A stretch of DNA of 64,000 nucleotides from positions 32,001 to 96,000 of IMG/VR virus record IMGVR_UViG_3300029288_000075; one strand, 5' to 3'. The notes below the pieces were generated by a model that worked only from the letters and a program-made list of their open reading frames with translations, had not been told where the DNA came from and did no database searches. Source of the DNA: a virus (taxonomy: Duplodnaviria > Caudoviricetes). Shown here one piece after another: positions 5,743 through 38,635 of this stretch (the stretch's first letter is position 1; every line of letters starts with the position of its first letter). The position numbers and the translations under genes were made by a program.

Positions 5743-5775
5743 TTCGGGGTGAGCCGTGGCTACTGCGCTCCTGTT

Positions 5776-5818: not shown

Positions 5819-5887
5819 GTCAATTCGAAATGGGGATGACCCCAAGCAGTAGTGGTACCAACTCACGTATCGCACTACTGCTTGGGG

Positions 5888-6986: not shown

Positions 6987-6987
6987 G

Positions 6988-13644: not shown

Positions 13645-15678
13645 ATGAGTATCCCTGGTTCGTTGATGATGGGTGGCGCCGGCAGCGGTTCTCGTTTTGT
13701 ACAGACCCGTGGGCGCATGGGAAATGGCTACAGCCAGGGGGTCAACTACCCGAGCCCGTTCTTCGACATCGCTCACACGTACTTGCCCATCACCATCAAG
13801 TCGATGCTGCGGTGGTGCCGTTACTACTTTCTGACGAATCCCATCATCAACGCCACAGTCACCAAGTTGGCGGAGTACCCCATTACGGAAATCATGATCG
13901 ACCATCCCGAGAAGCGGGTGGCGGACAAGTGGAAGGAGTACTTCGAAGACCATCTGAACTACCGCGCATTCCAGATTGAGTGTGGCCTTGACTACCATAC
14001 CTACGGGAATTGCCTGTCTAGCTTGAGCTTTCCTTTCAAGAAGTACCTGACGTGTGCTCAATGCGGGTTTCAAGCTGAAGCAAAGCGGATTCGTCCCCAT
14101 TGGGTTTTCACCAATTACGAGTACCGACTGAGTTGTCCCAAGTGCGGCAATCTAGGCACCGCTCGAGCACGTGACGTCTACCTCAAGAGCGAGGATGGTG
14201 TGCAGGTGATGCGGTGGAACCCGGAGGATGTAGAGATTACGTACTCTGCGCTCACGGGGGAGCACACGTACTTCTACAACATACCTGCGTCGGTGCGTAA
14301 CGATGTCATCATAGGTAAGAAGGACGCGGTAGAACAGGTCCCTGAGGTGTTTATTCAGGCGTTGCGCCAGCAGAAGGGTGTTGTATTTTCGAAGGACTTG
14401 TTCTTTCACCTGCGTCGGCCGACGCTGGCTGACCAGGATCGCGGGTGGGGTATTCCTCTGCTTCTTCCCTGTCTGAAAGACACGTTCTACCTGCAGATCA
14501 TGAAGAAGGCGCAAGAGGCCATTCTGCTCGAGCACATTGTTCCTCTGCGCACAATTTCTCCGCAAGCGGGCTCTGGTACCTCTGACCCGTATACCACCAT
14601 CAACCTGGTGGATTGGCGTGATCATGTAGCTACGGAAATTGCGCGTTGGCGCATGGACCCGAACTACATTCCCATCCTGCCGCTGCCCATCTCTAGCCAG
14701 ACCATTGGCGGGGATGGTCGTGCGCTTCTGTTGATCCAGGAGATGCAGGCCATCAGCGAGAACCTCATCAACGGTATGCAGGTTCCGCTCGAGTTCATCA
14801 AAGGTGGCTTGAGCTACGCCGGTACGAATGTGTCGATGCGTATGCTCGAGAACCAGTTCATCATCTACCTGTCGCGGCACAAGCGGCAAGCGCAGTGGGT
14901 GATGCGTAGCGTGGCCGACTACTTAGGGTGGCCGTTGGCTTCCATTCGTTTCAAGCCGTTCAAGATGGCCGACGACATCCAACGTAAGGCCTTCTTGTTC
15001 CAGCTCAACCAAGCCAACAAGGTCAGCGAAACGACATTGCTGGCTGATTCGGATTTGGATCAGGACCGTGAGAATCAGATCATGGAGCGCGAGACGGCGC
15101 AGCGGATCCGTGCAACGGAGAAGCAGCAGCTGGCCACGGCTGAATTGCAGGGCAGGCAGCAAGTTATCATGATGAAGATGCAGGCCAAGGCACAGCAGGA
15201 GATGCAGGCAGCCATGGCTGCCCCCAATGCCCCAGGAGAACCTGGTGGCCCTGCTAGTGGAGCAGCAGCGCCAGGAGGACAGGGCGGCGCTGACGTCATG
15301 CCCAGCAATCCAATGGCGGCTATGCAGAGTCCTCTCAACTCGACCCAGGATATGGGCTTGGGGCATAGCCAACAGCCAGGGCAACAGGCGCAGATGGGTG
15401 GCACTGATATCGTGTTGATGGCGCAGACCTACGCGCAGCAGCTATCTCAGATGAACGCTGCGCAGCAGCTGATCGCCCTCAAGAACTTGCGAACGCAGTC
15501 TCCAGAGTTGGCGGACTTGGTGATGCAGTACTTGCGCAGCATGCCGCGGTCGGTAAACGAGCCTTCTATGCCCGCTGCAAACTCTCAGATGGGGGCGGCC
15601 GGCGCCGCGGCGCAAGAAGTGGATATGACACCGCAGCCAGAGAAGCTTCCGCCAAGACGTGCGGCGGGCATGGTGTGA
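13645..15678 (+). CDS. Portal protein with Zn-ribbon insertion and Q/M/A-rich tail
   Basis: NPIINATVTKLAEYP, DYHTYGNC, FFHLRR...GWGIPLL pattern of HK97/T4-like portals; size and context. Confidence 0.75.
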   Translation: MSIPGSLMMGGAGSGSRFVQTRGRMGNGYSQGVNYPSPFFDIAHTYLPITIKSMLRWCRYYFLTNPIINATVTKLAEYPITEIMIDHPEKRVADKWKEYFEDHLNYRAFQIECGLDYHTYGNCLSSLSFPFKKYLTCAQCGFQAEAKRIRPHWVFTNYEYRLSCPKCGNLGTARARDVYLKSEDGVQVMRWNPEDVEITYSALTGEHTYFYNIPASVRNDVIIGKKDAVEQVPEVFIQALRQQKGVVFSKDLFFHLRRPTLADQDRGWGIPLLLPCLKDTFYLQIMKKAQEAILLEHIVPLRTISPQAGSGTSDPYTTINLVDWRDHVATEIARWRMDPNYIPILPLPISSQTIGGDGRALLLIQEMQAISENLINGMQVPLEFIKGGLSYAGTNVSMRMLENQFIIYLSRHKRQAQWVMRSVADYLGWPLASIRFKPFKMADDIQRKAFLFQLNQANKVSETTLLADSDLDQDRENQIMERETAQRIRATEKQQLATAELQGRQQVIMMKMQAKAQQEMQAAMAAPNAPGEPGGPASGAAAPGGQGGADVMPSNPMAAMQSPLNSTQDMGLGHSQQPGQQAQMGGTDIVLMAQTYAQQLSQMNAAQQLIALKNLRTQSPELADLVMQYLRSMPRSVNEPSMPAANSQMGAAGAAAQEVDMTPQPEKLPPRRAAGMV

Positions 15679-16057: not shown

Positions 16058-17401
16058 TTATTTCAGGAAGATGGTCTGTCCCCACGCCGCGGGCTTTGTG
16101 CGTGACGTAGGCACGATGCACCAGATCACCTCCATGTTGGTAGGCGGTTCTTCAGGTACCGTACCGTCACCGTCTGTGATGTAGATGAGCATGTCTGGTC
16201 GAGGCATGGCCTTGCATGCTTGTGCTATTGGCTGCCTGAAGTCCGTACCTCCACGCCCGTGTATTTCCATCTGGTACAAGTCCGCTGAGCACACCAGTGT
16301 TGGTTCCCGTTGTATTTTGGTGTCTGCCTCGAGGTAGTACACCTGCGAAGTGCCAGTTTGGTCGATGACGTCGGCGCAAACGCGCAGTGCGGCGCCCAGC
16401 TCAGGCTTGCCCATGGACAAGGAACTGTCCACTACTAGCCAGAGGCAGGGGTCGTAGTCAACCAGTCCAGGTAGCATGAACCCGCGGAGGTAAGACCGCT
16501 TTGACGGACGTTTGCGGCTGTAGTCAGAGCCGCCTACCCGAATGTGGTCTATGGTTTGGCTGGTGACTTCAGCCAGCAGCGATTCCCAAGGAACGTTGAA
16601 GGTTTCGTCGCTGGCGATGATGAGCTCGGACCAGATACCGGGGGCATTATCCCTACCGGTAGCTTGCAGGTGGTCTTTGATAGCCTGCGAGGTGAGTCTT
16701 ACGATGTGTCTCTTGTAGGCGTCAGAGCGACCTCCGTTCTTCTCTGCATTTTTGGCTGCTTCGAGCGCCTCAGATGTCGAAGCGCTAGATACGCCACCGC
16801 AGCAGCCAGCCATGAATTTGTTGTGGTGTTTTCCAGACTGGCCTTCTTGGTCGTTGCCGTCACCTGCTTCGCCTGAATCTCCGGCAGTACTTTTCTGCTT
16901 CTGTTCCTTCTCGTGCTGTTTCAGCCTGCGGTAGTACTCGTCCGCGGTAAGTCCGTTTGGCCATGCGTACTGCGCAGGAAGTACTGCCCAGTCAGGAAAT
17001 AGCCAAAGAGGTCGTTCTTCCGTGTTGGGGCCGCTGCTGTTCTTGAGTCGTACGGTGCGCTTTTGCTCCACCATCACACCGTTGATGAACAGGTCGCACG
17101 CCAAGAAAAAGGTCTGCGTATCTGGATAGCGCAGCCCTCTCTTCACATGCTCGAGCTGCACATGAAGGCACTCGTGAGCCAATCCGGTGGCCACAATTTG
17201 GGGATCTTCTGTAGCCACCCAGGCAGGGTCGTAGAGAAGCACAAGTTGCTCAGTTACGGCCATAGGGCCCTTGGCTATTTGCATCATGTGCTCGACTGGC
17301 GTTGGTATCAACGCGTAGAGTGTCGGGCTTAGGTATGGTGCAAACTGTCGGACAATCGCCCGCGCCAAGGGCAGCGCGGGCGACATATCTTGGTACGTCA
17401 T
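16058..17401 (-). CDS. HExxH metallopeptidase-like + VWA domain protein (DUF2201-like)
   Basis: AHECLH; MIDAS-like VVDSSLSM; GRGGTDF; IYITDG. Confidence 0.85.
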   Translation of the reverse strand: MTYQDMSPALPLARAIVRQFAPYLSPTLYALIPTPVEHMMQIAKGPMAVTEQLVLLYDPAWVATEDPQIVATGLAHECLHVQLEHVKRGLRYPDTQTFFLACDLFINGVMVEQKRTVRLKNSSGPNTEERPLWLFPDWAVLPAQYAWPNGLTADEYYRRLKQHEKEQKQKSTAGDSGEAGDGNDQEGQSGKHHNKFMAGCCGGVSSASTSEALEAAKNAEKNGGRSDAYKRHIVRLTSQAIKDHLQATGRDNAPGIWSELIIASDETFNVPWESLLAEVTSQTIDHIRVGGSDYSRKRPSKRSYLRGFMLPGLVDYDPCLWLVVDSSLSMGKPELGAALRVCADVIDQTGTSQVYYLEADTKIQREPTLVCSADLYQMEIHGRGGTDFRQPIAQACKAMPRPDMLIYITDGDGTVPEEPPTNMEVIWCIVPTSRTKPAAWGQTIFLK

Positions 17402-18681
17402 AGTTGCTCTTCCAAGAACTTGTTCAAGCCACCCTTAGCTAGCGGCACTATCACTTTCTGTGCTGCCTGCGCGACTGCCTTGTCCTGGCACTTCATGCCT
17501 AGACGCTGCGTGATCATGCTTTCAGCGTATGGCACTACGATGTCCGCCAAGTTTGCAGTTTGTAGTCGGCCGAGAGCTGCCCACATCAAGGGGGCCAGTT
17601 CTACTTTTTCCTCCATGGTGCTGCGTTGTCGCAGATACGAGGCAGCGCTGGCGTAGGCCATCACAACGATGTCCAGGCGATCCTTGTCAGGCTGCCATGT
17701 GCCGTCTAGCACGGCCATTGGCTCTGGCATGTCTGCTGTTTGAAGAAAGGTGGATAGCGTGGCTGCAGGTCCTTGCCCTACGCAGCATTCCACCAGCGTG
17801 TCACGCACCAGCTCAGATTTGCCAAGAATGGAGCAGGTGGTCCAGAGCCTGCCGGCGAAGTCCCACGTTCTAGAGGAAGGCCAGGCCTTGCTGCTTCTTG
17901 GGTCTGTTGCGGCAGGTTCCTGGTTGAACAGGGTGGGGTTGGATTTCAAGAAGGCGGTGATGAGGGAGAACGAGATGGGTTCTGCGTTTTTCCAGTTCTC
18001 CGTGACCATGGCTTCCAGGTTTAGTAGTGAGTGCGAGGAAGTAGCTGACGCGCCAAACATTTTGTAGGAAGTCCACTGCTCCAGCGGAAGGGACGGGTAT
18101 TCGTAGTGTGCAAAGCGCTGAGCCAATGGGGCAGACAGCCGGATGCCATTCGTGGCGATGTGCACTGGATTCTGGGCGGCAACGATGCGTACCTCGTTGG
18201 GTAACCTGGTATCCCCAGAAGCACGTTCGTGAACGAACGCTTGAAGTGCGGTATGCGTGGCCCTGGTACCACCGTTTATCTCGTCCAAGAAGATGATGCC
18301 CCGACCGTGTTCCACCATCTCACGGACCTGCGGTAGTGGACAGATCTGTTTGGCTCCGCCTCTGCCATCCGGGATGAGCACGCTGGCAAAGTCCTCCGGG
18401 GCGTGCTGTGACGCGTATAGGGTGACCAGCCTTTCTTGCATTGCGTCTGATAGCTGTTCAATCTGCGCAGTTTTCGCACTGGCAATCTTGCCCTCGATGA
18501 GTAGTGGGATCCCCCAAATGCACTTGGTGTCTCCTGGGGATCCCTTCATCGGTGTAGCAAAGCAGACCTCGAGCAGGTCTAGCAGCAGCGGTCTTGGACC
18601 AGCTACCGATGGCTGTGCGGTGGTGCGGAGGGCTGATAGGTTTGCTACAGTTTGCTTTCTCTTCATGGCCATTACTTGCAT
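17398..18681 (-). CDS. MoxR-like AAA+ ATPase
   Basis: Walker A GKIASAKT, Walker B IFLDEIN, VAAQNP, LSAPLAQRF, PSSRTW; adjacent VWA partner. Confidence 0.85.
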   Translation of the reverse strand: MQVMAMKRKQTVANLSALRTTAQPSVAGPRPLLLDLLEVCFATPMKGSPGDTKCIWGIPLLIEGKIASAKTAQIEQLSDAMQERLVTLYASQHAPEDFASVLIPDGRGGAKQICPLPQVREMVEHGRGIIFLDEINGGTRATHTALQAFVHERASGDTRLPNEVRIVAAQNPVHIATNGIRLSAPLAQRFAHYEYPSLPLEQWTSYKMFGASATSSHSLLNLEAMVTENWKNAEPISFSLITAFLKSNPTLFNQEPAATDPRSSKAWPSSRTWDFAGRLWTTCSILGKSELVRDTLVECCVGQGPAATLSTFLQTADMPEPMAVLDGTWQPDKDRLDIVVMAYASAASYLRQRSTMEEKVELAPLMWAALGRLQTANLADIVVPYAESMITQRLGMKCQDKAVAQAAQKVIVPLAKGGLNKFLEEQL

Positions 18682-19253
18682 TCTCCAGTGCGATGTACGC
18701 AGGTTGAGTGGTCGCAGGTTCTAGTTCTCCAGCACCGTTCGAATAGTCCGTCCAGACATACGGAGAGTCCAGGCACTGGTTCCACCCCTGTTTTCCAAAT
18801 GGGGGTGTCTCGGCTTTCTTCCAAGTGATTTAGGCAGCCTATGCACACGTGTATTTCGTTGTTCATGCCCACGAACTTGGGCATGTACTCGCGGTGCGGG
18901 TTGCGTTCGGAGTAGTGAAGTTCGCCAAAGGCAGCAGTAGCGAAGGCTTCTCCCTGAAGTATGTCGCTGCCGCAGATGTCACATTCCACTATCCCATCGG
19001 CATCCTCGAGCGGCGGTGAGTCTTCTAGTAGCTCCTTCACTTCTTCAAGGGTCTCTTCCCAGCAGCTGAAGCACCAGAACACCGGTATGTAGCGGAAGTA
19101 CCCGTTCATCTCTAGGACGTCCACCATCTGTAGTCCCGCGTCGGTGTTGACTACGTGCACGATGTGAAATAGAAAGACTTCGTCGGTGAGACCTAGCTCA
19201 TCGCCGCAAGAGGTGCAGTAGATACCAGATCCAACTTCTACCTCTTCCTCCAT
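18672..19253 (-). CDS. Cys-rich acidic protein (multiple CxxC)
   Basis: CTSC, CFSC, CDIC, CIGC plus a C-terminal Cys cluster. Confidence 0.7.
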   Translation of the reverse strand: MEEEVEVGSGIYCTSCGDELGLTDEVFLFHIVHVVNTDAGLQMVDVLEMNGYFRYIPVFWCFSCWEETLEEVKELLEDSPPLEDADGIVECDICGSDILQGEAFATAAFGELHYSERNPHREYMPKFVGMNNEIHVCIGCLNHLEESRDTPIWKTGVEPVPGLSVCLDGLFERCWRTRTCDHSTCVHRTGECK

Positions 19254-19852
19254 AGCCGTGCCCTTTCTCTAGGAGCCGTTCGTTCAATACTGACCCAGCG
19301 GGTTTCTATGGTGGCCATGTTCAAGTCGGGTCCCATGCCTGTGCGCAGGTCTATGTCGTTCAGTAGCAGCATGTTTTCTGCGAAGTCGTTGCCCCTCCCG
19401 TTGTGGATGAGCCGTTCAAATGACAGCCCTGGCTCGAGCATTGAACCGGCTGGATACCTTGCACGCGCTTCTAGCTCACGGTCATACAGGTCATCTAGGA
19501 GGTCGTCATCGTCTACTGCCAGACCAACCCAGTCACGGTCGTTGGTATCCACGTAATCCTGGTCTAGCCACTCGCAGTAGGATCCTGGTGTTGCCATTTG
19601 CAGCAAGACTTCCAGGTCTCTTTGGTTGCAGAAGCTGATGAAACCTTTGTTGTCCACGACCTTGGCACGTACACCGCCAATTGCCCTGCCAATCACAGGC
19701 GTGTACAAGGAGTACACCGACCAGACCCGGTCATCGTGGTGCACGTCGTAGAAGGTTGACCCCAGGATTCCGAGGGTACTTTCTACGATGTGCGTACCGG
19801 GTATAGGAGCCAGTTCGTTTTTCCCCTCGAGGGTGAACGGATTGACAATCAC
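19238..19852 (-). CDS. Hypothetical protein
   Basis: GTG start with GGAGG RBS; operon packing. Confidence 0.65.
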   Translation of the reverse strand: MIVNPFTLEGKNELAPIPGTHIVESTLGILGSTFYDVHHDDRVWSVYSLYTPVIGRAIGGVRAKVVDNKGFISFCNQRDLEVLLQMATPGSYCEWLDQDYVDTNDRDWVGLAVDDDDLLDDLYDRELEARARYPAGSMLEPGLSFERLIHNGRGNDFAENMLLLNDIDLRTGMGPDLNMATIETRWVSIERTAPRERARLWRKR

Positions 19853-19941
19853 GGGTTCCTCCAGATGAGCGAGTCCATCAAGTAGTGGGAGAAGCCGAAG
19901 ATGAACCCTGCGATGAATGCCCAGATGAGGAGCGATTTCAT
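19849..19941 (-). CDS. 30-aa single-TM peptide (MKSLLIWAFIAGFIFGFSHYLMDSLIWRNP)
   Basis: Translated by hand; stop overlaps the next GTG (GTGA). Confidence 0.55.
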   Translation of the reverse strand: MKSLLIWAFIAGFIFGFSHYLMDSLIWRNP

Positions 19942-19942
19942 A

Positions 19943-20092
19943 TTAGGATTCTTTTTCCGGCTCTTCTGTTGTACTTTCAGTTGATGATGACCTGCTGTAC
20001 AGGTCTTGTACCAACTGGCGGTACTTCTCTCCGGAGTCAGGGCGATCAGGAAACTCTTGTGCTGTTGGGCGTTTTTGTTCTTTGCGTGGCAT
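19943..20092 (-). CDS. 49-aa charged peptide (MPRKEQKRP...EPEKES)
   Basis: Translated by hand; GGAGG RBS; first gene after a GGGATAAG motif. Confidence 0.5.
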   Translation of the reverse strand: MPRKEQKRPTAQEFPDRPDSGEKYRQLVQDLYSRSSSTESTTEEPEKES

Positions 20093-20110
20093 GCGACCCT
20101 CCGATAAAGC

Positions 20111-20120
20111 TCTTATCCCG
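20111..20120 (-). promoter_or_regulatory. Putative phage promoter CGGGATAAGA
   Basis: Same core as 16029 and 35979; heads the minus-strand MoxR operon. Confidence 0.55.
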
Positions 20121-20171
20121 TAGGGTGCGTGTCCCTTGCACCTTTTTGTCCCCGCAACCGCTGGTTCCAGC

Positions 20172-20177
20172 TATACT
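20172..20177 (+). promoter_or_regulatory. sigma70-like -10 (TATACT) 10 nt before the RNAP ATG
   Basis: 5/6 match to TATAAT; no clear SD between it and the ATG. Confidence 0.45.
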
Positions 20178-20187
20178 CTCGTAGAGC

Positions 20188-23100
20188 ATGACGCACTTGA
20201 ATCCGACTGAAGCGTTCGAGCACTACCGCGACAAGACCCTGGGTGCGATCAGGAAGCAGTTCCCTGTCGACGGGCAGAACCAACGTCTCGAGCTGGTGGA
20301 CCTAGAAGTTCAGGACAACTTGAATCCCGACGATATCAGGGATCAGCAGCAGGCCAAGGTAACAGGGAAGACTTGGGGTATCCCGGTTTACGCCAAGCTC
20401 AAGTTGGTGAACAAGGTCACTGGCGAGACGACTCAGTCGCGTACCAGAATTGCTGAGCTTCCCAAGATTACATGCCGACAGAGCTACATCGTAGGCGGGC
20501 AGGAGTACCAAGTAGACAACCAGTGGCGGCTCAAGCCTGGCGCGTATGTGCGGAGGAGGCAGACCGGACAGATTGAGGCAATGTTCCAGCCGGGTAACAA
20601 GCCGTCGTTCGACGTTGTTTTTGATGACGCGACGAAGGAGTTCAAAGTAGAGCTCCCTGGCGGTAAAGCGTCTGTGCCGCTGTACCAGATCATTTCCACG
20701 TTGGGTGTTTCTGATGACGAGTTGCACAAGGCGTGGGGTCCTGAGGTATTGGCTGCCAACAGAAATGCACGTGGTGTTCACGGGGCGGTGGAGCAGTACT
20801 ACAAGACCACGACAAAGAAGGAGGCACCCAGTGCGGCAGTAGCTGTAAGTCATCTAGTGACTTCACTGCAGCAAACGCAGCTGCGACCCGAAGCTACGGC
20901 GCTCACGCTTGGGAAGCCGATAGACCATGTGAACGGTGATGCTCTGCTGCGGGCTACTCGCAGGATGTTGGATGTCCAGTCTGGTGGGCCTGTAGATGAC
21001 CGCGATTCGCTGGTGTTCAAGGACCTCAGGAGCGTTGGGGATTTCTCCGAGGACAAACTACGTGAGGCTGGTGCAGATATTCGACGTAAGATGTCGAGGC
21101 AGGTGAATCGCGCAACCAACCCGTCCCACATGGTGCCGCTTGACGCGTTCAATAGGCCCATCAGGGACACGTTCTACAAGAACTCTGCAGCGCAGGTAGC
21201 CAAGCAAATCAACCCGGTGGAGATCTTGTCGGCTGCGCAGCAGACCACGGTGATGGGACCTGGCGGTATCCAGTCCGAGAATCAGATCATGCCCGAGGTG
21301 AAGTTTGTGAATCCCTCGCACATGGGCTTCTTGGACCCGATACATACGCCGGAAGGTGGAAAGACGGGCGTTACCTTGCGGTTGCCTATGAGCGTGAAGC
21401 AAGTTGGGTACGAGCCTAGGATTCCGCTGTACAACATACGTACAGGAAAGGTGGAAGACGTAGGGCCTGCCGCGTTTCTGAAATCGAAGATTGTACTTCC
21501 TGACCAGGTGGACTGGAAAGGCGGGAAGCCGGTAGCTCGAGGGCGTACGGTGAAGCTATCCGTGGCAGGCAACGACGTATCGGATGGCCATTTGCACGAG
21601 GCTGACTACGTGATGCAGCACACGTCGCAGTTCTTCAATGTCACCAGCAACTTGATCCCGTTCATCAACAGCACTTCTGGTGGCAGAGCATCTATGGCCA
21701 CCAGGCACATGGAGCAGGCCATCTCTCTGGTGGGACGAGAAGCACCTCTTGTTCAAGTAGGCACTGGCTCCGCTACCCCGGGTAGCACCACTTTCGAAGA
21801 GGTTGTAGGCACTCGCGCGTCTCATTACTCTCCGATCGCGGGCGTGGTGAAGGCAGTGAAGCATGACGCTGTGGTAGTAGCTGGCCACGACGGCAAGGAG
21901 CACGAGGTGCAGATCTACCGCAACTACCCGCTGAACGACGCCAAGTCGGTTTTGGACTCCACAGCGATTGTGAAGCCTGGTGATCGCGTGCGTGCGGGGC
22001 AGGTGGTGGCGGATACGAACTTTTCAAAAAACGGCGTAATTGCCTTGGGCACGAACCTGCGCGTGGGCTACATCCCGTACACGGGGTACAACTTCGAGGA
22101 TGGAGTAGTCATCAGCGAAAGTGCTGCGACGAAGCTCAGTAGCGACCATCTATACAAGCACAAGGTTCCCGTAGATGCCGAGTCGGTGTTGTCGAAGAAG
22201 CACTTTGTGACGCACCACGCTGGCTTGTTCAGCAAGGATCAGTTCGCAAAGGTAGGAGATGACGGGCTAGTTGCCGTAGGATCCGTGGTGCATCCCGGAG
22301 ACCCGCTGGTCTTGTCTATGAAGCAAGTGGTTGCGCGTGACCGCACGGGGCTATCCGCCATCCGTAAGAGCTTTGGGACTCAGTTTGCCGACCAGTCTAC
22401 TGTCTGGGACGGGGTAGGTGAAGGCAGGGTTGTGAGCTCCGAGAAAGTTGGCGACCACGTGGTTGTACACGTGCGGGCAATTGAGCCGATGCAAGTTGGC
22501 GACAAGTTGGCTGGTAGGTACGGCAACAAAGGCATTGTCACCAAGATTGTGCCGGACCACGAGATGCCACGTACACCCGATGGGAAGCACATAGAGGTGG
22601 CGTTGAATCCCTCGGGGGTACCTGGGCGTATGAACGTAGGGCAAGTGCTGGAGACTGCGGCTGCCAAGATTGCCCAGAAGACGGGCAAGCCGTACATTGT
22701 GCAGAACTTTTCAGATGGTAGTCAGCTTGCTCGGGTGCAAGCCGACCTGAAGAAGCACGGGCTGAGTGACACAGAGGACTTGTTTGATCCTATTACGAAG
22801 CAGCGCTTGGGCACTGCGCTGGTCGGCTCCCAGCACATGATCAAGCTGCACCATCAAGTGGACAAGAAGGTGTCCGTACGCTCTGGCATGACGTTGCCGG
22901 GAGAAGCTCCAGAGAAGTACAACTCCAACCTGCAGCCGGTGAGTGGCAAGCATACCGGCGGACAAGCGATGGACCCGCTAGGTATGTACTCTCTGCTCGC
23001 GCACGGGGCTCGTGCAAACATCCGAGAGATGGCCACGTGGAAGAACGAAGGTCCGGACATGTCTTCCAATCCGTCCAAGCAGTGGCATAGTCAGCATCAC

Positions 23101-26100
23101 GAGGTGTGGGATGCCATACAGCACGGTGACCCGTTGCCCGTGCCGAAGCCGACTTTCGCCTTTCACAAGTTCACGTCGATGCTTACCGCCGCGGGCATCA
23201 ACGTAGATAAGAAAGGGCACAACTTCATCTTGGGCCCGTTGACGGATTCCCACATACAGCAGTCGTCTGGAGATCGGGTACTGACGAAGCCTTCGGAGAT
23301 TGTTTACGCGAAGCTGGATTCGAAGACGGGGGAGCCCAAGCCCAAGCCGGGAGGGTTGTTTGACGACCGCCTTACTGGTGGCAATGGCGGACGTAAATGG
23401 AGTCGAATCGCCCTTGCCGAGCCGGTGCCAAATCCCGTGTTTGAGGATTCCATCCGGATGCTGACGGGGCTCTCTTCTGCGGACTACCACGGGTTGGTGC
23501 ATGGGGTGCACGCGATAGACAGTCACGGCCACATCGTAGAGGCTGGCAAGGGCACTACTGGCGGTGCGGCGATTGAGCAGCTGCTGAAGAAGATAGATGT
23601 GGCTGCCGAGTTGGATAAGTCCAAGAGGGCTTTGAATACGCTACCGGCGTCGAAGGTGGATGCCACCCTGAAGAGGGTGAAGCGGCTACAAGCACTTCAC
23701 CAGTCTGGCTTGTCTGCTGATGAGGCATACGTGCTGCACTCCCTGCCAGTCATTCCTCCAGCTATGCGCCCAGTCACTGTCATGCACGACGGCTCGCTGA
23801 AGTTCGATGACATCAATCAGCTGTATGCCAAGGCAGCTCAGACGAACATGTACTTGGGGGATCAAACGTTGGCCACGAACTTGCCGGAACAGCGCAGGAG
23901 AGATTTGCGCAAGGAGATGTACGACGGTGTCAGTGCATTGATGGGAGTCGGTATCCCGTACAAGGATGCGCAGCATAAGGGCCTATTGCATCTGATCCAG
24001 GGCGCGCAGCCCAAGACCGGCTATTTCCAGAGCACGCTCATCAGTCGCAAGCAAGACCTGAGCATGCGGTCTACCATTGTTCCGGAACCCTCCTTGGGGT
24101 TGGACGAGGTAGGGTTGCCTCGAGAGCAAGCCATGAAGCTGTTTTCTCCCTTTGTGGTGGGTGAGTTGAAGAAGTCAGGAATGGCCATCAACGTGGCCGA
24201 CGCGCAGAAGATGGTAGCTTCCGGCACGCCCGCGGCGCACAGGGCGTTGGCCAAAGTCATGACCGAACGTCCCGTGATGCTGAAACGAGATCCTTCGTTG
24301 CACAAGTACAGCATCCAGGCGTTTCAGCCTAAGGTGGTGGAGGGTAGCGCTATCAAGATTCACCCGCTGGTTACTGGGGGGTACAACGCAGACTTCGACG
24401 GGGACACCATGAGCGTGTTCGTGCCTATCTCTCAAGAGGCAGTGGATGAGGCGCACCGCATGTTCCCGTCCAACAACCTGTTCAGCGAAGCTACAGGCAA
24501 GGTCATGTACCAGCCTACGCTGGAGTCTGCGCTGGGGCTGTATAAGCTGTCGCGTGTCAATGATACGAAGGCGCACCACATCTCTCACCCTGCGGAAGCG
24601 ATTACCGCGGTGCAGCAGGGGAAGCTAACGGTGAATGACCGGGTGAAACTGGGAAATCAGGTCACCACACCAGGTCGTATCATTTTGGCGGCCGCCCTGC
24701 CTGAGCCAATGCAGCGTCCTATGCTGGAGAACCTTGGGCAGCAGTTGGACAAGAAAGGGCTGGACGCGCTGCTGACTACAGTGGCCAAGAACCATGTCGG
24801 AGACTATGGGCATGTAGCAGACAAGCTGAAGAACTTGGGTAACGGGGCGGCAAGTGGCGTGGTCACGGTGGAGCATGACGGATTCGTGGGTGCTGCACGT
24901 CTGGACCAGAAGAATAGAACTTACGTGCCTGTGGGCGTCCACACGCTGGCGTTGTCCGACTTTGAGCCAGATACGAAGACCAGGGAGCGAGTGTTGGCAC
25001 CGGCTCGTTTGGAGGCGGCACAGGTAAGGCAGGGGGGTGGTACCAAGTACAACAAGGATGCTGCGCTGGTGCGTATTTGGTCTGCAGCAGACCGCAAGAT
25101 GCAGGAAGAGCACATGAAGGTGGCCACAGACGATCCGACCAACCTCATGATGATGCACTTGGCTGGCGTGAAGCCCGGGTGGGGACAGTACAAGCAGCTC
25201 ACGCTGGCACCCATGCTGGTGGCCGACGCTTCTGGAAGAATCATCCCAGTGCCTATTACCCGCAGCTACTCCGAGGGGCTGGATTCTGGAGATTACTGGA
25301 ACCAGATGCACGGAGCTCGGCGTGGTGCGGTCATGAAGGTGCAGGAGGTCCAGGAACCTGGGTATCTTTCGAAGCTGATGATGGCCAACACTATGAACAT
25401 GGTGGTGCATGGGAACGACTGTGGCACTGAGCGCGGTATTGCTCTTCCTGTGACCGACCCAGATGTGCATGACCGGTTCTTGCAGCGTGAATTCAACGAG
25501 AAGGGAGTGCATGTCCCCTCCGGTACCTTACTCACTCCGCGGGTAGTCACCAGCATGCGTTCAGCAAACAAGAATGCTCAGATCGTGGTGCGCAGCTCGT
25601 TGAAGTGCGAGCATGCTACTGGGGTGTGCCAGAAGTGTATGGGGCTAGCGGCCAATGGCAACTTGCATTCTGATGGGGACAATGTTGGTGTTACGGCTGC
25701 ACAGACGCTGGGTGAGCGCGCGGTGCAGTTGACCATGCGCGTTTTTCATACCGGTGGCGTGGCGGATACCGGGAGTGGTTCCCGCGTGCTGGGGGAATTC
25801 GATCGGGTGCAGCAGCTCATGAAGTTGCCCAAGCGCATACCCGACGCGGCCACGTTGGCTATGGCATCGGGCACAGTTGACAAGGTGGAAAAGACGGCCA
25901 CCGGCATGAACATCTTCGTTGGGGGTAAGAAGCACTTCGTGGGGAAAGACGCTCGAGGGGCACCCTTGTGGCATTCCATAGGGGACAATGCGCATCCTGG
26001 CTGGGTCCCCCCGCGGGTAGGGACCCAGGTGACGCGAGGCCAGTCGCTGAGTGATCCTCTTCGTACGCTGGTGAATCCGCATGATCTGTACAAGGCCACT

Positions 26101-26583
26101 GGGAGCATTGAGACTGTGCAGAACCACCTGGCGGACCAACTGCATTCCTTGTACAAAAGCGAAGGGATCAAGCGGCAGCACGTGGAGACTGTGGTCAAGG
26201 CCATGAGCAACCTGTCCGAGGTAGCCGCCCCTGGGGACTACGAGGGTGTCCTGCGTGGCGAATTCCATCCCACGTCCAAGCTCATTGCGGTCAACAAGCG
26301 GCTGATTCGGGAGGGTAAGAAGCCGATAGAGCACAAGCCGGTACTGAAGGGGGTGGACATCATGCCGTTAGCGGTTCAAGAAGATTGGATGGCCAAGATG
26401 CAGCACATCAAGCTCAATCAGACCCTGCTGGATGCAGCGGCCACAGGCGGTAGATCCAGCATCCATGGCATGCACCCCATTCCTGCTCTGGCGTATGGTG
26501 CTGAGTTTGGTTTGACAAGTGAGCATGCCAAGCAGCGGTCAGCCTTGAGCCATCTTCACGATGTGCAGGGGCACGAGTACTGA
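20188..26583 (+). CDS. rpoBC: Single-chain multisubunit-type RNA polymerase, beta-beta' fusion
   Basis: beta motifs: MGPGG, TPEG, GYNFED, GDKLAGRYGNKG, NPSGVPGRMNVGQ, KLHHQVDKK. beta' motifs: LPVIPPAMRP, KRDPSLH, NADFDGD (24385-24405), bridge helix HGARRG, trigger loop QLTMRVFHTGG. Confidence 0.97.
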   Translation: MTHLNPTEAFEHYRDKTLGAIRKQFPVDGQNQRLELVDLEVQDNLNPDDIRDQQQAKVTGKTWGIPVYAKLKLVNKVTGETTQSRTRIAELPKITCRQSYIVGGQEYQVDNQWRLKPGAYVRRRQTGQIEAMFQPGNKPSFDVVFDDATKEFKVELPGGKASVPLYQIISTLGVSDDELHKAWGPEVLAANRNARGVHGAVEQYYKTTTKKEAPSAAVAVSHLVTSLQQTQLRPEATALTLGKPIDHVNGDALLRATRRMLDVQSGGPVDDRDSLVFKDLRSVGDFSEDKLREAGADIRRKMSRQVNRATNPSHMVPLDAFNRPIRDTFYKNSAAQVAKQINPVEILSAAQQTTVMGPGGIQSENQIMPEVKFVNPSHMGFLDPIHTPEGGKTGVTLRLPMSVKQVGYEPRIPLYNIRTGKVEDVGPAAFLKSKIVLPDQVDWKGGKPVARGRTVKLSVAGNDVSDGHLHEADYVMQHTSQFFNVTSNLIPFINSTSGGRASMATRHMEQAISLVGREAPLVQVGTGSATPGSTTFEEVVGTRASHYSPIAGVVKAVKHDAVVVAGHDGKEHEVQIYRNYPLNDAKSVLDSTAIVKPGDRVRAGQVVADTNFSKNGVIALGTNLRVGYIPYTGYNFEDGVVISESAATKLSSDHLYKHKVPVDAESVLSKKHFVTHHAGLFSKDQFAKVGDDGLVAVGSVVHPGDPLVLSMKQVVARDRTGLSAIRKSFGTQFADQSTVWDGVGEGRVVSSEKVGDHVVVHVRAIEPMQVGDKLAGRYGNKGIVTKIVPDHEMPRTPDGKHIEVALNPSGVPGRMNVGQVLETAAAKIAQKTGKPYIVQNFSDGSQLARVQADLKKHGLSDTEDLFDPITKQRLGTALVGSQHMIKLHHQVDKKVSVRSGMTLPGEAPEKYNSNLQPVSGKHTGGQAMDPLGMYSLLAHGARANIREMATWKNEGPDMSSNPSKQWHSQHHEVWDAIQHGDPLPVPKPTFAFHKFTSMLTAAGINVDKKGHNFILGPLTDSHIQQSSGDRVLTKPSEIVYAKLDSKTGEPKPKPGGLFDDRLTGGNGGRKWSRIALAEPVPNPVFEDSIRMLTGLSSADYHGLVHGVHAIDSHGHIVEAGKGTTGGAAIEQLLKKIDVAAELDKSKRALNTLPASKVDATLKRVKRLQALHQSGLSADEAYVLHSLPVIPPAMRPVTVMHDGSLKFDDINQLYAKAAQTNMYLGDQTLATNLPEQRRRDLRKEMYDGVSALMGVGIPYKDAQHKGLLHLIQGAQPKTGYFQSTLISRKQDLSMRSTIVPEPSLGLDEVGLPREQAMKLFSPFVVGELKKSGMAINVADAQKMVASGTPAAHRALAKVMTERPVMLKRDPSLHKYSIQAFQPKVVEGSAIKIHPLVTGGYNADFDGDTMSVFVPISQEAVDEAHRMFPSNNLFSEATGKVMYQPTLESALGLYKLSRVNDTKAHHISHPAEAITAVQQGKLTVNDRVKLGNQVTTPGRIILAAALPEPMQRPMLENLGQQLDKKGLDALLTTVAKNHVGDYGHVADKLKNLGNGAASGVVTVEHDGFVGAARLDQKNRTYVPVGVHTLALSDFEPDTKTRERVLAPARLEAAQVRQGGGTKYNKDAALVRIWSAADRKMQEEHMKVATDDPTNLMMMHLAGVKPGWGQYKQLTLAPMLVADASGRIIPVPITRSYSEGLDSGDYWNQMHGARRGAVMKVQEVQEPGYLSKLMMANTMNMVVHGNDCGTERGIALPVTDPDVHDRFLQREFNEKGVHVPSGTLLTPRVVTSMRSANKNAQIVVRSSLKCEHATGVCQKCMGLAANGNLHSDGDNVGVTAAQTLGERAVQLTMRVFHTGGVADTGSGSRVLGEFDRVQQLMKLPKRIPDAATLAMASGTVDKVEKTATGMNIFVGGKKHFVGKDARGAPLWHSIGDNAHPGWVPPRVGTQVTRGQSLSDPLRTLVNPHDLYKATGSIETVQNHLADQLHSLYKSEGIKRQHVETVVKAMSNLSEVAAPGDYEGVLRGEFHPTSKLIAVNKRLIREGKKPIEHKPVLKGVDIMPLAVQEDWMAKMQHIKLNQTLLDAAATGGRSSIHGMHPIPALAYGAEFGLTSEHAKQRSALSHLHDVQGHEY

Positions 26584-27848
26584 TGGCGGGTCACCACCAG
26601 GGACTAGCCGAGGCGGCGCGCGGGGCAATACGGCCTCGTACGGAATTCCGTACAAGCATGACTGCGCCGTCAGGGTTGGGTGACACCAACATACTCATGG
26701 CGCGCGTCATCAACGTGGACCTAGTGCACTACACCGTTGACGTATACAGTCAGTTCGATCAAGTGCGCCTGCTGTCGGTGCCCATCGGGTCTCCATATCT
26801 GCACTCGAATCGTGGAGATGGACTCTCTATCACCCCAGAGATTGGTGCCAAGTGTGCCGTCTGCTGGCCTGGGGATAGTTCTCCTCCATTCGTTCTGGCC
26901 TTTGTTATGCCGCACGAGACGGTACCGACGACAGGTGATGCGGAGAGCCCTGGAGGAACGTCCGAGCGCAGCGACAGTAATCAGGGTCCTTCTACAGCCA
27001 GTTTTGCTGGAGGTAGACCAAAGGGTAAGCCGGGGGACATAGCTCTGCGGGGTCGGGATGGGCAGTTCGTTGTACTGCACCGCGGCGGCGTGCTCCAGGT
27101 TGGAAGCAACGAGCTAGCGCAACGCTTGTATATCCCGCTGAACAACCTGGTGATGGACGTGGCCGAGAACTATGCCATGCAGAATTCCGGCGGGTCAATA
27201 CGCTGGGGAATACAAGAGGGAGAAGGTGAGACCACCCTTCCTACTGAGTACAAGCACGCCATGCGCGTGTACGCGAACGACAAGTATGCAGATCTTCGCA
27301 TAGGCATGGGGCGCGTACATGATCCAGTGCCCGAGATGGATGACGACGGGATTACGGACTTGGCAGCCGCTGAAGTAGGAAAGACAGAGCCCATCGTGTG
27401 CGAGCTCTCCCTTGCTAGGAACGGGTTCAAAGCAGAGAGCGGTGCGCTACTACCTGGTACGGGCAACCTGGTGAAGCTTCGATTCATCTTTGACCGTGCT
27501 GGCAACGCGTTTCTGCGTATGGATGGAAACGTTGGTATCTTGTGCAAGAAGAAGTTGCGTCTTCGTGTGAAGGGCGACATGGAGGTGTTCGCCGACAGCA
27601 ACTTCAGCCTGACTGTAGCTAGCAGTGCAAAGATAGCCGTGGGTGGGAACTTCGAGCTCACGGCACCCGTGGTGCGCGTAAACGATGGAGACAAGCCTGT
27701 AGCACGTGTAGGGGACCAGGTGTCCGTAACGTTACCGCCTACGTTGCTCATGGTAGCTCCGGGCCCGCCGGGGTTCATGCCAATACCGCCGGGCATGAAC
27801 TCAACGATTGGTGTCATCACCAGTGGTAGATCGGACTTCTTGGCGTAA
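26583..27848 (+). CDS. Baseplate central spike (gp5/gpV-like OB fold) with C-terminal PAAR-like segment
   Basis: ARVINVD...PEIGAKCAV OB-fold pattern, beta-repeat stretch, GDKPVARVGDQV...GVITSG. Confidence 0.65.
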   Translation: MAGHHQGLAEAARGAIRPRTEFRTSMTAPSGLGDTNILMARVINVDLVHYTVDVYSQFDQVRLLSVPIGSPYLHSNRGDGLSITPEIGAKCAVCWPGDSSPPFVLAFVMPHETVPTTGDAESPGGTSERSDSNQGPSTASFAGGRPKGKPGDIALRGRDGQFVVLHRGGVLQVGSNELAQRLYIPLNNLVMDVAENYAMQNSGGSIRWGIQEGEGETTLPTEYKHAMRVYANDKYADLRIGMGRVHDPVPEMDDDGITDLAAAEVGKTEPIVCELSLARNGFKAESGALLPGTGNLVKLRFIFDRAGNAFLRMDGNVGILCKKKLRLRVKGDMEVFADSNFSLTVASSAKIAVGGNFELTAPVVRVNDGDKPVARVGDQVSVTLPPTLLMVAPGPPGFMPIPPGMNSTIGVITSGRSDFLA

Positions 27849-28489
27849 TGGTAAACGACATCGGCAGCTATACGCTTGGTGGCATCAACATTGGATTGGC
27901 CGTAGGCATAGGCCTGATCAACCCACTGCTACTGCAGTTCGACTTGTTCCTGACAGGACAGTTCGGTCTTGGGCCATTTCTGCTGGATGTGCAGGTAGCT
28001 TTCAATGCAGCGATATCCGCGGTGTTGCAGCTCAGCATCGGGATCTCTGACCCGTTGGCGATACTGCGGTCGTTGCTCATGGCTATGGTGCAATTGCAAG
28101 CTTCGTTGTCGGTGATGCTGTCTTTCGGATTGCCCACGGTTACTGCGCAGATAGGCGCACAGATTGCTGCTGTGGCAGCACTCACTGGTGCCTTGGCTTT
28201 GAAGCTAGGTGGTGTGCGAGCCTTGCTGTCTGCCGGGTTGGCCGTGAAGATCCCGGTAGTGAAGTTTGTCGGACAGATCACTGGTGCACTAAGCGCTGGG
28301 CCTGCCCATTTGCTGTCCTTTACGGGAAGTACATTGGCCGCATCTGGCGTTCAGATTGCGGCAGCCTTCGCTTCTGGTCTTGGACCAGACGACCCTCTTT
28401 TGCCAACCGACTTGGTGGATGGCATCATCATCGTCACTAAGGACCCTGCCGTTTTCCAGGCTATGGGTTTGCTGCTAAAGACATCGTGA
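27848..28489 (+). CDS. Very hydrophobic protein, probably tail tip- or membrane-associated
   Basis: L/A/G/I-rich helices over most of its length; coupled to the spike gene. Confidence 0.6.
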   Translation: MVNDIGSYTLGGINIGLAVGIGLINPLLLQFDLFLTGQFGLGPFLLDVQVAFNAAISAVLQLSIGISDPLAILRSLLMAMVQLQASLSVMLSFGLPTVTAQIGAQIAAVAALTGALALKLGGVRALLSAGLAVKIPVVKFVGQITGALSAGPAHLLSFTGSTLAASGVQIAAAFASGLGPDDPLLPTDLVDGIIIVTKDPAVFQAMGLLLKTS

Positions 28490-29007
28490 TGGCTAGCCAC
28501 TCGCAAAGATTTTGGGCTAAGGTGCAGAAGCGAGGTCCCAAGCATCCGGGGTTAGGCACACGCTGTTGGGTGTGGACCGCGGCAAGGCTTCCTGCGGGCT
28601 ATGGGTTGTTCAAGCTGAATGGCCGCAGCCGTGTTGCTCATAGTGTTGCTTGGGAGATCGAACACGGCGAACTACTTAGAGGTATCTGCGTGCTACATCG
28701 CTGCGATAATCCAGCGTGCGTGCGCCCAGACCACCTGTTTTTAGGTACCAGAGGGGACAACAATACGGATAGGTCCATAAAAGGCAGAAGTGCCAAGGGA
28801 GACCGCTCGCCCTCCAGGTTGCACCCGGAGAGCAGACCAAGAGGCTCCCGGCATGCCAATGCGAAACTGACGGAAGAGAGGGCCGCCAGGATTCGGGAGT
28901 TATATGCTGTTGGAGATACTACGCAGACCAGGCTGGCCCGGCTGTTCGGTGTTCATCAAAAGGTGATTAGTGGTATCGTTTTGGGCACTAGTTGGAAGAC
29001 CTCGTAG
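28486..29007 (+). CDS. HNH homing endonuclease with C-terminal HTH
   Basis: RFWAKV...CWVWT...VLHRCDNPACVRPDHLFLGT..DN; HANAKLT. Confidence 0.9.
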   Translation: MMASHSQRFWAKVQKRGPKHPGLGTRCWVWTAARLPAGYGLFKLNGRSRVAHSVAWEIEHGELLRGICVLHRCDNPACVRPDHLFLGTRGDNNTDRSIKGRSAKGDRSPSRLHPESRPRGSRHANAKLTEERAARIRELYAVGDTTQTRLARLFGVHQKVISGIVLGTSWKTS

Positions 29008-32872: not shown

Positions 32873-33140
32873 TCTGCATACGAACGTGCGTTCGCTGCAT
32901 GGATAGGTGCTTTACTGGCCACCTCTCTTTGCGCAGGTACATACGCATGTACTTGCTAGCTACCTTCCATATGGGAGGGGGTATTCGTTGATTCAGTCGA
33001 ATGGTTACGGCAAAGCCGCCGTCCTTCAGAGGGTCTACGGTTGCCTGTTCTCCCCAGTGGGTGTCGGCGGCACGCCGCAAAGATTCCCACAGGCAACGCA
33101 CTGCGGTGTATGGGTCGTTGGTTGGTTTGGGAGGGTACAT
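32772..33140 (-). CDS. Small basic protein, head-to-head with TerL
   Basis: ATG 33140 with AGGAGG upstream; fills the 270-bp gap before TerL. Confidence 0.55.
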   Translation of the reverse strand: MYPPKPTNDPYTAVRCLWESLRRAADTHWGEQATVDPLKDGGFAVTIRLNQRIPPPIWKVASKYMRMYLRKERWPVKHLSMQRTHVRMQINYSPPTKKRKPHQSAGQAEKRSPQQRPTRLNV

Positions 33141-33142
33141 TG

Positions 33143-35029: not shown

Positions 35030-35671
35030 ATGACACTCACTAAGCGCCCGTGCGTTGTATGCCGCACCTCTTTTTCTCCGACTAGCGCATCTAACGTCTG
35101 CTGCTCTCGTACTTGTGCTCGTGCACTGCGTGGTGACTTCGTCGCTAGGTTCTGGGCTCGCGTTGATAAGAAGGGCGCGGTAGCGCCAGGAATGAAGACT
35201 GCTTGCTGGCTCTGGACAGGGCGCCTGGAGAAAAATGGGTATGCGCGGATCAAGCGAGAGGATTCCAAGCAGCAGGTTTCCGTGCACCGTGCAGCCTGGG
35301 AACTACGCCACGGGGAGGTGCCTGACGGACTGTGCGTTCTGCACAAATGTGATGTTCGACACTGCGTTAGGCATTTGTTTCTTGGCACGCATCAAGCCAA
35401 TACGGCGGACATGCTCAAGAAGGGTAGGGCTAACAAGGCGCAGGGAGAAGCGCACGGGCAGTCCAAGCTAAGTAAAGAGCAGGTGCGCGCAATCCTCATG
35501 GGGTACTACGCCCTTGGTTTTACTCAGGTGGAATTAGCAGAGAAGTACGGGGTTAGTTCGATGCAGGTTAGTAGGATATGTTCCGGCAAACGCTGGAAGA
35601 AGGCTCTGCAAAGTCTGGGTACCTACGAGTTTACGCGACGTGGAAAGCGAGTGACGGTGTCGGCCACGTAG
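35030..35671 (+). CDS. HNH homing endonuclease (Zn finger + HNH + HTH)
   Basis: CVVC..CSRTC, RFWARV, CWLWTG, VLHKCDVRHCVRHLFLGT; paralog of 28486. Confidence 0.9.
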   Translation: MTLTKRPCVVCRTSFSPTSASNVCCSRTCARALRGDFVARFWARVDKKGAVAPGMKTACWLWTGRLEKNGYARIKREDSKQQVSVHRAAWELRHGEVPDGLCVLHKCDVRHCVRHLFLGTHQANTADMLKKGRANKAQGEAHGQSKLSKEQVRAILMGYYALGFTQVELAEKYGVSSMQVSRICSGKRWKKALQSLGTYEFTRRGKRVTVSAT

Positions 35672-38044: not shown

Positions 38045-38635
38045 ATGAACCCAGCAGAAGAGTTCTTGACGGAGAAGAAGGCGTTCGGTCTTGGGGCACT
38101 CACGGGAGCAGCCCGCTCTACGGGTAAAGCAATGTCCCCAGCGGCCAAAGCGTTTGGTTCTGCTGCTGCAGTGGGGGCTGGGGCTGCGGCATTTGCTGGG
38201 CTGGCGGGTGGTGCAAGCAAGCTGTACGCAGCGGCCACCAAGACTCGAGACTTCCGCGCCATGCTGGATGCGAATCCAGACTTGCTACAGCATCAGAAAG
38301 CAGACCCGGCAGGGTTCAATCGCATGTACTCTTCGTTGCGCACATTGGCACCGGAGTTTGCTGCGGAACCGCTGGTAGCTGGCTATTACCTACGTCAAGG
38401 TATGGAGGGCCTCATGGAGGGTCGTGGCGGCGTGTCTGTGCAGGCCATGAATGCAAAGCGTCCTGTGCAGACCGGGCCTATGACGGATGCGGCCTTGCAG
38501 GGGTACATGAGGGGCATGGGTTCGAAGAAGGAAGAGGGTCCTCGACCGCAGTTGGTATCGCAGACGCGACATCGATTCGACCCGGAAACTCAGGGGTGGC
38601 AGCAAACTGAGACCACCGAGAATCGGTACGGATGA
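38045..38635 (+). CDS. Gly/Ala-rich putative internal virion protein
   Basis: Short acidic leader ending in KKA, then an amphipathic/hydrophobic helix. Confidence 0.65.
   Translation: MNPAEEFLTEKKAFGLGALTGAARSTGKAMSPAAKAFGSAAAVGAGAAAFAGLAGGASKLYAAATKTRDFRAMLDANPDLLQHQKADPAGFNRMYSSLRTLAPEFAAEPLVAGYYLRQGMEGLMEGRGGVSVQAMNAKRPVQTGPMTDAALQGYMRGMGSKKEEGPRPQLVSQTRHRFDPETQGWQQTETTENRYG

Follow-up and report, generated by a model that had tools for sequence, protein, structure and literature searches.

The jumbo phages phiKZ and AR9 encode two-barrel RNA polymerases (RNAPs) that work without alpha or omega, one set of which is packaged in the virion for early genes; these enzymes consist of 4-5 very divergent polypeptides and use no sigma-family factor, and a review of the jumbo phages describes just such split, sigma-less enzymes and YonO-like single chains (PMC7824862). 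In crAss-like gp66, in YonO and in the tape-measure-fused RNAP of P23-45 both barrels lie on one polypeptide, and the crAss and P23-45 enzymes are virion-delivered. These single-chain proteins are barely or not alignable to beta/beta' (PMC7481178). They miss most cellular modules and are not known to use sigma70-family factors. Fusions of cellular rpoB and rpoC, in which the C-terminus of beta is joined to the N-terminus of beta' in one polypeptide, have been documented in Helicobacteraceae and Wolbachia (PMC7483510). Here we describe a fused beta-beta' RNAP encoded by an uncultured tailed phage (Caudoviricetes), the IMG/VR virus record IMGVR_UViG_3300029288_000075 (187,857 bp, CheckV 99% complete), of which we analysed a stretch of 64,000 nucleotides, bases 32001-96000 of the record, referred to as the window. 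Like the crAss, YonO and P23-45 proteins this enzyme carries both barrels on one chain, and like the cellular fusions it joins the end of beta to the start of beta', whereas compared with the phiKZ and AR9 enzymes it is fused, bacterial-like and accompanied by a sigma factor. It is encoded by a single open reading frame (ORF):

20188-26583, plus strand: fused beta-beta' RNA polymerase, ATG start, 2131 amino acids (aa), 231.7 kDa, 0 internal stops

An initial annotation made from the letters alone had described one 2131-aa ORF with the core beta and then beta' motifs in order. We found the ORF to be open throughout, and the order of its Pfam domains agrees, the first half matching Rpb2_3 and Rpb2_6 (1.2e-53) and the second half Rpb1_1, Rpb1_2 and Rpb1_5. 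In comparisons with solved structures, the beta' half matched the beta' subunits of Streptomyces, Bacillus and Thermus at a phmmer E-value of ~1e-107, and the beta half matched bacterial beta at up to E 6.5e-76, nearly end to end for cyanobacterial beta. The beta half reached only E ~1e-20 against archaeal and eukaryotic chains and 2e-21 against the phage AR9 non-virion enzyme, which bears out the reading of the enzyme as bacterial-like. Identity to E. coli beta plus beta' was 27.7% over 2031 aligned columns of a MAFFT alignment of E. coli and 12 relatives. No second RNAP set was found in the genome, where PF00562 gave just one match; a search with PF00940 (T7-type RNAP) gave no positive among the controls. 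No near-identical phage records were found. An assembly or frameshift artefact, or a decaying pseudogene, was ruled out, since the same unbroken frame recurs across dozens of independent contigs from different samples and the catalytic residues are invariant; we regard the probability of this explanation as negligible. As judged from its sequence, the predicted product was thus confirmed as a genuine, intact, bacterial-type single-chain beta-beta' polymerase core in a phage.

To place the parts of the enzyme, the following elements were located in the fused chain by alignment with E. coli:

20188-23220, plus strand: beta module, residues 1-1011, without the E. coli insertions betaSI1, betaSI2 and 1126-1195
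21184-21267, plus strand: rifampicin-pocket region, residues 333-360, with E. coli D516, H526 and S531 replaced by K, A and T
22090-22104, plus strand: conserved beta NFEDG motif, residues 635-639 (E. coli E813/D814 region)
22345-22377, plus strand: retained equivalent of the beta flap tip, TGLSAIRKSFG
22498-22533, plus strand: beta active-site lysine motif GDKLAGRYGNKG (GDK...GNKG; E. coli K1065/K1073), residues 771-782
23197-23238, plus strand: fusion point, comprising the last beta strand INVDKK (1004-1009), the turn G1010-H1011 and the first beta' strand NFILGP (1012-1017)
23221-26580, plus strand: beta' module, residues 1012-2131, whose alignment begins at E. coli beta' residue ~19
23374-23397, plus strand: loop TGGNGGRK in place of the beta' zinc-binding domain
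23812-23946, plus strand: retained clamp coiled-coil (clamp helices), helices 449-465 and 475-493 of the structure model
24385-24405, plus strand: catalytic NADFDGD (Mg-binding loop), residues 1400-1406, invariant in the family
25309-25383, plus strand: conserved bridge helix
25417-25638, plus strand: retained second zinc site, DCGTERG ... CEHATGVCQKC
25729-25758, plus strand: trigger-loop N-arm LTMRVFHTGG (E. coli M932/R933/H936 conserved)

In bacterial enzymes the clamp coiled-coil is the main docking site of sigma region 2, and the flap tip is the docking site of sigma region 4. The alignment showed that all catalytic elements are intact and that both of these putative sigma docking sites are kept, as are the lid and the rudder region. 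At 2131 aa against 2749 aa (1342+1407) in E. coli the chain is 618 aa shorter, close to the ~600 aa first estimated. Absent from it are E. coli beta residues 215-357 (SI1), 938-1049 (SI2), 1126-1141 and 1161-1195 and beta' residues 949-1112 (SI3), all of them known lineage-specific insertions of E. coli. Also missing from beta' are the first 18 residues, 64-99, 150-170, 553-569, part of the jaw (1141-1187) and the C-terminal tail. Segment 64-99 is the N-terminal zinc-binding domain (Cys70/72/85/88), which is lacking across the whole family; residues 1011-1130 of the fused chain contain no Cys. The real losses are this domain and part of the jaw, with the rest of the shortening mostly due to the E. 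coli insertions. The description of the enzyme as compact therefore stands relative to E. coli and needs qualifying otherwise, as the chain is only ~150-200 aa shorter than the smallest bacterial beta plus beta' pairs sampled (2281-2331 aa). The substitutions in the rifampicin pocket fall at the three classic resistance positions of E. coli rpoB, and by analogy with rpoB genetics the phage enzyme may be rifampicin resistant.

The two modules had been described as joined seamlessly at about 23160-23270, and we could place the junction peptide at residues 995-1019 (nucleotides 23170-23244), where H1011, the last residue of beta, is followed directly by N1012, the first of beta', without a linker. 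The motif G[IV]N[IVM]EKKGH and, right after it, x[FL][IV]L[ST]PLTD are kept across the family and in two cultured phages, Arash of Salmonella and D69 of Vibrio. Residues 760-1300 were modelled with AlphaFold2 from 96 sequences of the family, and the model had a mean predicted local distance difference test score (pLDDT) of 86.8 and a predicted template modelling score of 0.76. In this model beta and beta' meet at the two-residue turn of a beta-hairpin (pLDDT ~96), formed by the C-terminal strand of beta together with the N-terminal strand of beta', and the structural neighbours of the model are the N-terminal regions of bacterial beta'.

This architecture is widespread. In a word-index search we obtained more than 120 clusters at 54-75% identity, almost all 2119-2163 aa long and on contigs of up to 200 kb, and at 72 IMG/VR loci each complete copy was one unbroken frame, with a length of 2060-2220 codons or, where it contains in-frame inserts, more; one locus among the 72 (L062) holds a broken copy. 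A profile scan of IMG/VR gave 428 relatives, of which the best 80 all belong to the fused family, down to 35% identity. When 1.84 billion 50%-identity representatives were searched exhaustively, 2743 matches reached E <= 1e-30, and the best 150 of these (E <= 1e-157) all belong to the fused family with the same fusion. Among these best 150 representatives and best 80 IMG/VR loci there were no intermediates toward bacteria or mReC-like forms (mReC being the deep-branching, RNAP-encoding tailed phages reported from metagenomes). The beta-beta' fusion is ancient, under selection and spread over a very large phage family. About 30% of the members retrieved (83 of ~270; P0013-P0270, for example P0026 and P0205) contain between one and five insertions that keep the frame and are 280-520 aa long, at hot spots that correspond to residues ~390, ~775, ~810, ~950, ~1277, ~1406 (NADFDGD) and ~1855 (trigger loop) of the window's protein and coincide with the most conserved motifs. 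Since several of these insertions contain LAGLIDADG or intein-splicing Pfam domains, the polymerase is an intein hot spot; the window's own copy has no inteins.

None of the deposited phage genomes is a close match; the nearest, at ~30% identity, belong to Salmonella phage Arash and to the three Vibrio phages D69, D181 and D148. Their genomes (180-187 kb) are similar in size to that of the window phage, and Arash and D69 share with it the tree clade, the linker-free junction, the loss of the zinc-binding domain, a portal gene just upstream of the RNAP and an orthologous sigma factor. They differ in that their RNAP is split into a 1525-aa ORF (beta plus the N-terminal 500 residues of beta') and a separate gene of ~606 aa, whereas beta' is continuous in the window phage and in all complete metagenomic relatives. 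The break comes after the position that corresponds to residue ~1500 (E. coli beta' ~553-569), in a surface loop into which 17 residues are inserted in E. coli, and genes or a homing endonuclease separate the two parts; the RNAP match in D181 and D148 extends across a homing endonuclease. Arash and D69 also have AADYDGD in place of NADFDGD and a divergent trigger loop, and Arash encodes gp196 as an additional sigma and, beside the gene for the C-terminal part of beta', an SNF2 helicase, neither of which has a counterpart in the window phage genome. Since the split forms branch inside the fused clade or at its base, we reasoned that the beta/beta' fusion is ancestral to both and that the later split of beta' looks secondary, an order derived without an outgroup inside the phage clade.

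It had been suggested that the lineage may already be known as mReC; cultured relatives with a partial fusion exist in Arash and D69. The window phage resembles the mReC phages, uncultured tailed phages whose beta and beta' are recognisably homologous to the cellular subunits and branch apart from the cellular clades, in that it is a tailed-phage contig in which beta and beta' homologs were found with cellular profiles. The mReC survey (Weinheimer & Aylward 2020, PMC7481178) required separate high-scoring beta and beta' proteins, and mentions fusion for crAssphage only. Every phage row in parts 9-10 of the 14 parts of its table lists two different proteins, encoded by separate genes and each at least 800 aa long (beta ~900-1560 aa, beta' ~890-1390 aa), often with two sets per genome, in contrast to the one chain and one set of the window phage. 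As these rows show two separate proteins, the fused lineage is not evidently a known mReC, and the survey's requirement for separate subunits may have left the fused group out. The annotation's expectation that the enzyme is biochemically uncharacterised agreed with the searchable literature, in which we found no characterisation; nor did the library searched, which is not exhaustive, yield a paper describing a fused phage RNAP family. The family is a variation on known kinds, namely phage multisubunit-type polymerases and beta-beta' fusions, and the details that are new here are the loss of the zinc-binding domain, the replacement of the rifampicin pocket, the hairpin fusion point and the inteins in ~30% of members.

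A further explanation is that the gene is a recent capture of a bacterial rpoBC operon, fused through loss of the intergenic region, for which the clear bacterial-type homology would speak. We inferred a tree from 39 rows, comprising 13 fused phage proteins (the window's included), Arash, D69 and 24 bacteria from 7 phyla (source: genome_contigs), using 2015 columns and the LG+C20+F+G4 model with posterior mean site frequencies in a quick search only; the sampling covers few phyla and no archaeal, eukaryotic or mReC sequences, and the program flagged long branches and compositional heterogeneity. Phages and bacteria formed one clade each, both with a Shimodaira-Hasegawa-like approximate likelihood ratio support of 100, and between the two lies a branch of ~3 substitutions per site, which meets the bacterial subtree at the deep split between Gammaproteobacteria and the rest and inside no phylum. 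Nesting in a bacterial clade, which would have meant a recent capture, was thus not seen, the phage clade lying outside all 24 bacteria. Because of this very long branch, the lack of nesting in any phylum and best bacterial matches that are uniformly 27-31% identical across phyla, while the family alone spans down to ~35% identity, recent capture was rejected as highly improbable.

The absence of recognisable alpha, omega and sigma genes from the window, as first described, held up. A six-frame profile search of the 188-kb genome found no alpha (PF01000, PF01193) and no omega (PF01192), with each model positive in 14/14 control genomes. The lone Sigma70_r4 match in the window (35477-35578), exactly at the Pfam cut-off in the six-frame search, was rejected as a sigma, being the helix-turn-helix tail of an HNH homing endonuclease (ORF 35030-35671, plus strand). 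Elsewhere in the genome we found a sigma factor:

Genome 125585-126340 (window-equivalent 93585-94340, outside the window): sigma70-family factor g134, 251 aa, Sigma70_r3 30.8 bits

In g134, Sigma70_r3 is above the Pfam cut-off and r2 and r4 are weak. The protein corresponds to Arash gp10; a profile built from 64 homologs matched SigA at 2e-15 and aligned over the full length to SigB, SigF and FliA, and the fold neighbours of its AlphaFold2 model (pLDDT 83.9) are sigma factors only. Homologs of g134 form 104 clusters and share their ~190-kb contigs with the fused cores. Since the genome encodes this sigma outside the window, the enzyme is probably sigma-dependent rather than factor-free. The gene directly downstream of the RNAP was also considered as an alpha-like accessory subunit:

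26583-27848, plus strand: g055, 421 aa, whose start overlaps the RNAP stop (TGATG) and which adjoins the RNAP in all relatives

We rejected this role with moderate confidence. The protein has no Pfam or PHROG match and no similarity to Arash gp217, its language-model neighbours are gp5/VgrG spike proteins, and it is probably a gp5/VgrG-like baseplate spike rather than an RNAP subunit.

A candidate class of phage-specific promoters is marked by the motif GGNATAAG. It occurs in 8 copies in the window against 3.6 expected, at 3809, 7842, 16037, 20112, 31335 and 35987 on the minus strand and at 52893 and 61562 on the plus strand. Across the genome there are 26 copies, 11 of them within 60 nucleotides (nt) upstream of a same-strand start, against 1.0 on average and at most 6 in 500 trials of random placement. 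The extended consensus of these class A promoters is TGAAA-N16-GGGGATAAGAwAGGTAGAGGA, mostly ahead of small genes. One weaker class A copy heads the g131-g134 block, the last gene of which is the sigma; with its gene behind such a promoter, the sigma would have to pre-exist.

The position of the RNAP gene and the proteome of Arash suggest that the enzyme may be delivered with the virion. In an Arash virion preparation Gp206 was the most-detected protein with 3516 spectra; Gp216 gave 1210 and the sigma Gp10 467 (PMC10585845). Per residue these counts come to 2.3, 2.0 and 2.0, consistent with Gp206, Gp216 and Gp10 forming a 1:1:1 complex. The SNF2-family helicase gp217 of Arash (L007 21261-22679), encoded after the C-terminal part of beta', has 2.4 spectra per residue, like the RNAP parts, and may be an RNAP-associated factor. 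The place of the RNAP gene between portal and terminase is fixed from Arash to the most divergent fused members, and in the window the block is bounded by:

13645-15678, plus strand: portal protein (Arash gp204 homolog, E 2e-79), upstream of the RNAP in all relatives
33041-34987, plus strand: large terminase (Arash gp1 homolog, E 8e-43; Pfam GpA_ATPase), which closes the conserved block from portal and RNAP to terminase

The sigma g134 and the head-module protein g067 (window 38045-38635) share their first dozen residues (MNAADEFLETK / MNPAEEFLTEKK), a pattern reminiscent of capsid-targeting leaders. On this evidence we lean slightly towards virion delivery of the phage polymerase.

As the best explanation of the data as a whole, and one that we consider moderately probable, we propose that the fused chain is a functional single-chain catalytic core that works with g134, is packaged in the capsid and dispenses with alpha and omega. 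A complete beta joined via a beta-hairpin turn to a complete beta' would constitute this core. It would (a) pair with the phage sigma g134 and read promoters of the form TGAAA-N16-GGGGATAAG; (b) be packaged with the sigma in the capsid and delivered with the DNA, starting early transcription independently of the host polymerase, so that early transcription would be insensitive to inhibitors of that polymerase; and (c) need neither alpha nor omega, with the covalent link taking over the assembly role of the alpha dimer. We infer all three steps, with confidence that falls in the order given. In its strongest form, the fused chain and the 251-aa sigma would make up a self-sufficient two-polypeptide holoenzyme without alpha, omega or zinc-binding domain, rifampicin-insensitive, capsid-carried and injected, which we put forward as a tentative possibility.

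Several points weigh against this proposal. The assignment of the class A promoters to g134 is itself inferred, and the literature yielded no experimental work on the window's protein or on other fully fused members of the family. For the Arash virions a sucrose gradient was the sole purification step, 116 of ~270 proteins were detected, ribonucleotide reductase among them, and the authors concede possible carry-over of abundant infection proteins (PMC10585845). The RNAP bears no capsid-targeting leader like that of the sigma and g067, and its K-x-A sites, which mark neighbouring head proteins, show no enrichment (11 observed against 12.4 expected). In addition, the promoter of the RNAP gene itself has a different layout:

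20120-20187, plus strand: promoter space of the RNAP gene, ~70 nt, with TATACT at 20172-20177, 10 nt before the ATG, and no Shine-Dalgarno

Many relatives (L014, L020, L047, L063 and others) have CTTGCAC-N17/18-TAcgCT ending 6-10 nt before the RNAP ATG, again with no Shine-Dalgarno, and such a sigma70-like layout occurs at one other gene in the genome, g004 (window -27370). This arrangement suggests that the RNAP mRNA in many relatives, and the g004 mRNA here, are nearly leaderless, and the sigma70-like promoter could make the RNAP an early product of the host polymerase. These features fit an enzyme that is not carried in the virion, in which case the host polymerase would transcribe the RNAP gene early from its nearly leaderless promoter, which in relatives lies 8-10 nt before the ATG, and the phage enzyme would take over middle and late transcription unpackaged. 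Against such an enzyme stand the location of the RNAP gene, which in every relative lies in the block for head and tail morphogenesis, the rank of Gp206, Gp216 and Gp10 among the most abundant proteins of the Arash preparation with matching per-residue counts, the head-protein-like leader of the sigma, and the class A promoter ahead of the sigma gene, which is unlike a host promoter. We therefore consider a non-virion enzyme unlikely.

The other point that weighs against the proposal concerns alpha. Bacterial RNAP assembly is thought to rest on the alpha dimer, and natural and engineered bacterial beta-beta' fusions are, as far as is known, still alpha-dependent; because of this, the fusion alone is no proof of alpha-independence, and the phage enzyme could recruit host alpha or omega. 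The fused chain might then be the catalytic core of a hybrid enzyme that assembles with the host alpha dimer, and perhaps with omega, and is not self-sufficient. Such an assembly is in keeping with the phage enzyme being far closer to bacterial beta/beta' than the alpha-free phiKZ and AR9 enzymes are, and with the occurrence of natural fusions in cellular lineages that keep alpha, namely Helicobacteraceae, Wolbachia (PMC7483510) and a candidate phyla radiation (CPR) bacterium. These cellular fusions, in contrast to the phage enzyme, branch within bacteria, in genomes with alpha and omega, and represent independent fusion events. A virion-delivered hybrid would have to bring along packaged host alpha or find a compatible alpha in every host that it enters, the phage enzyme lies ~3 substitutions per site from bacterial enzymes, and all other characterised phage two-barrel polymerases function without alpha (PMC7824862). 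Weighing both sides, we regard the hybrid as a real possibility, if one short of even.

A natural, abundant single-chain enzyme that is ~28% identical to bacterial beta/beta' and comes with a sigma would directly test the need for alpha, omega and the zinc-binding domain, and could yield a two-gene, orthogonal, sigma-programmable transcription system. If the proposed packaged core is correct, it would represent a third route to host-independent early transcription, beside the giant virion polymerases of N4 and crAss and the split phiKZ enzymes. A self-sufficient holoenzyme, if borne out, would be the simplest known sigma-dependent cellular-type RNAP, from a lineage that either split very early from the bacterial enzymes or evolved very fast. 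The lineage has hundreds of members with cultured relatives on Salmonella and Vibrio, and the fused chain offers a long, well-alignable marker for the deep phylogeny of this large phage group.

Other features surround the RNAP gene in the window:

16058-20100, minus strand: cassette between portal and RNAP
20112-20119, minus strand: class A promoter core GGGATAAG, directed leftward, which drives the minus-strand cassette and is kept in relatives as CTTATCCC
28486-29007 and 35030-35671, plus strand: HNH homing endonuclease genes inside the structural block

The cassette is found in one sub-clade and is absent from more divergent relatives; it encodes a DUF2201 metallopeptidase/VWA protein, a MoxR-like AAA ATPase, two unknown proteins and two tiny ORFs. 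On the minus strand at 19853-20187, a ribosome-binding site and an ORF of ~50 aa from ~20093 are followed by an ORF for a hydrophobic peptide of ~30 aa, the two overlapping at TAATATG. The plus-strand ORF g053 (19885-20184, 99 aa) is probably spurious, as it has no homolog at related loci and overlies the two small minus-strand ORFs and the promoter.

Two bacterial contigs also emerged from the analysis. L113, a contig from a metagenome-assembled genome (MAG) of Candidatus Paceibacterota, contains a single ORF of 2284 codons (163-7014) with beta and beta' motifs, which groups with CPR bacteria and is apparently an independent cellular rpoBC fusion outside Helicobacteraceae and Wolbachia. The rpoBC of L156, labelled as uncultured Gammaproteobacteria, likewise groups with CPR bacteria in the tree, and for this reason its MAG label is probably wrong.

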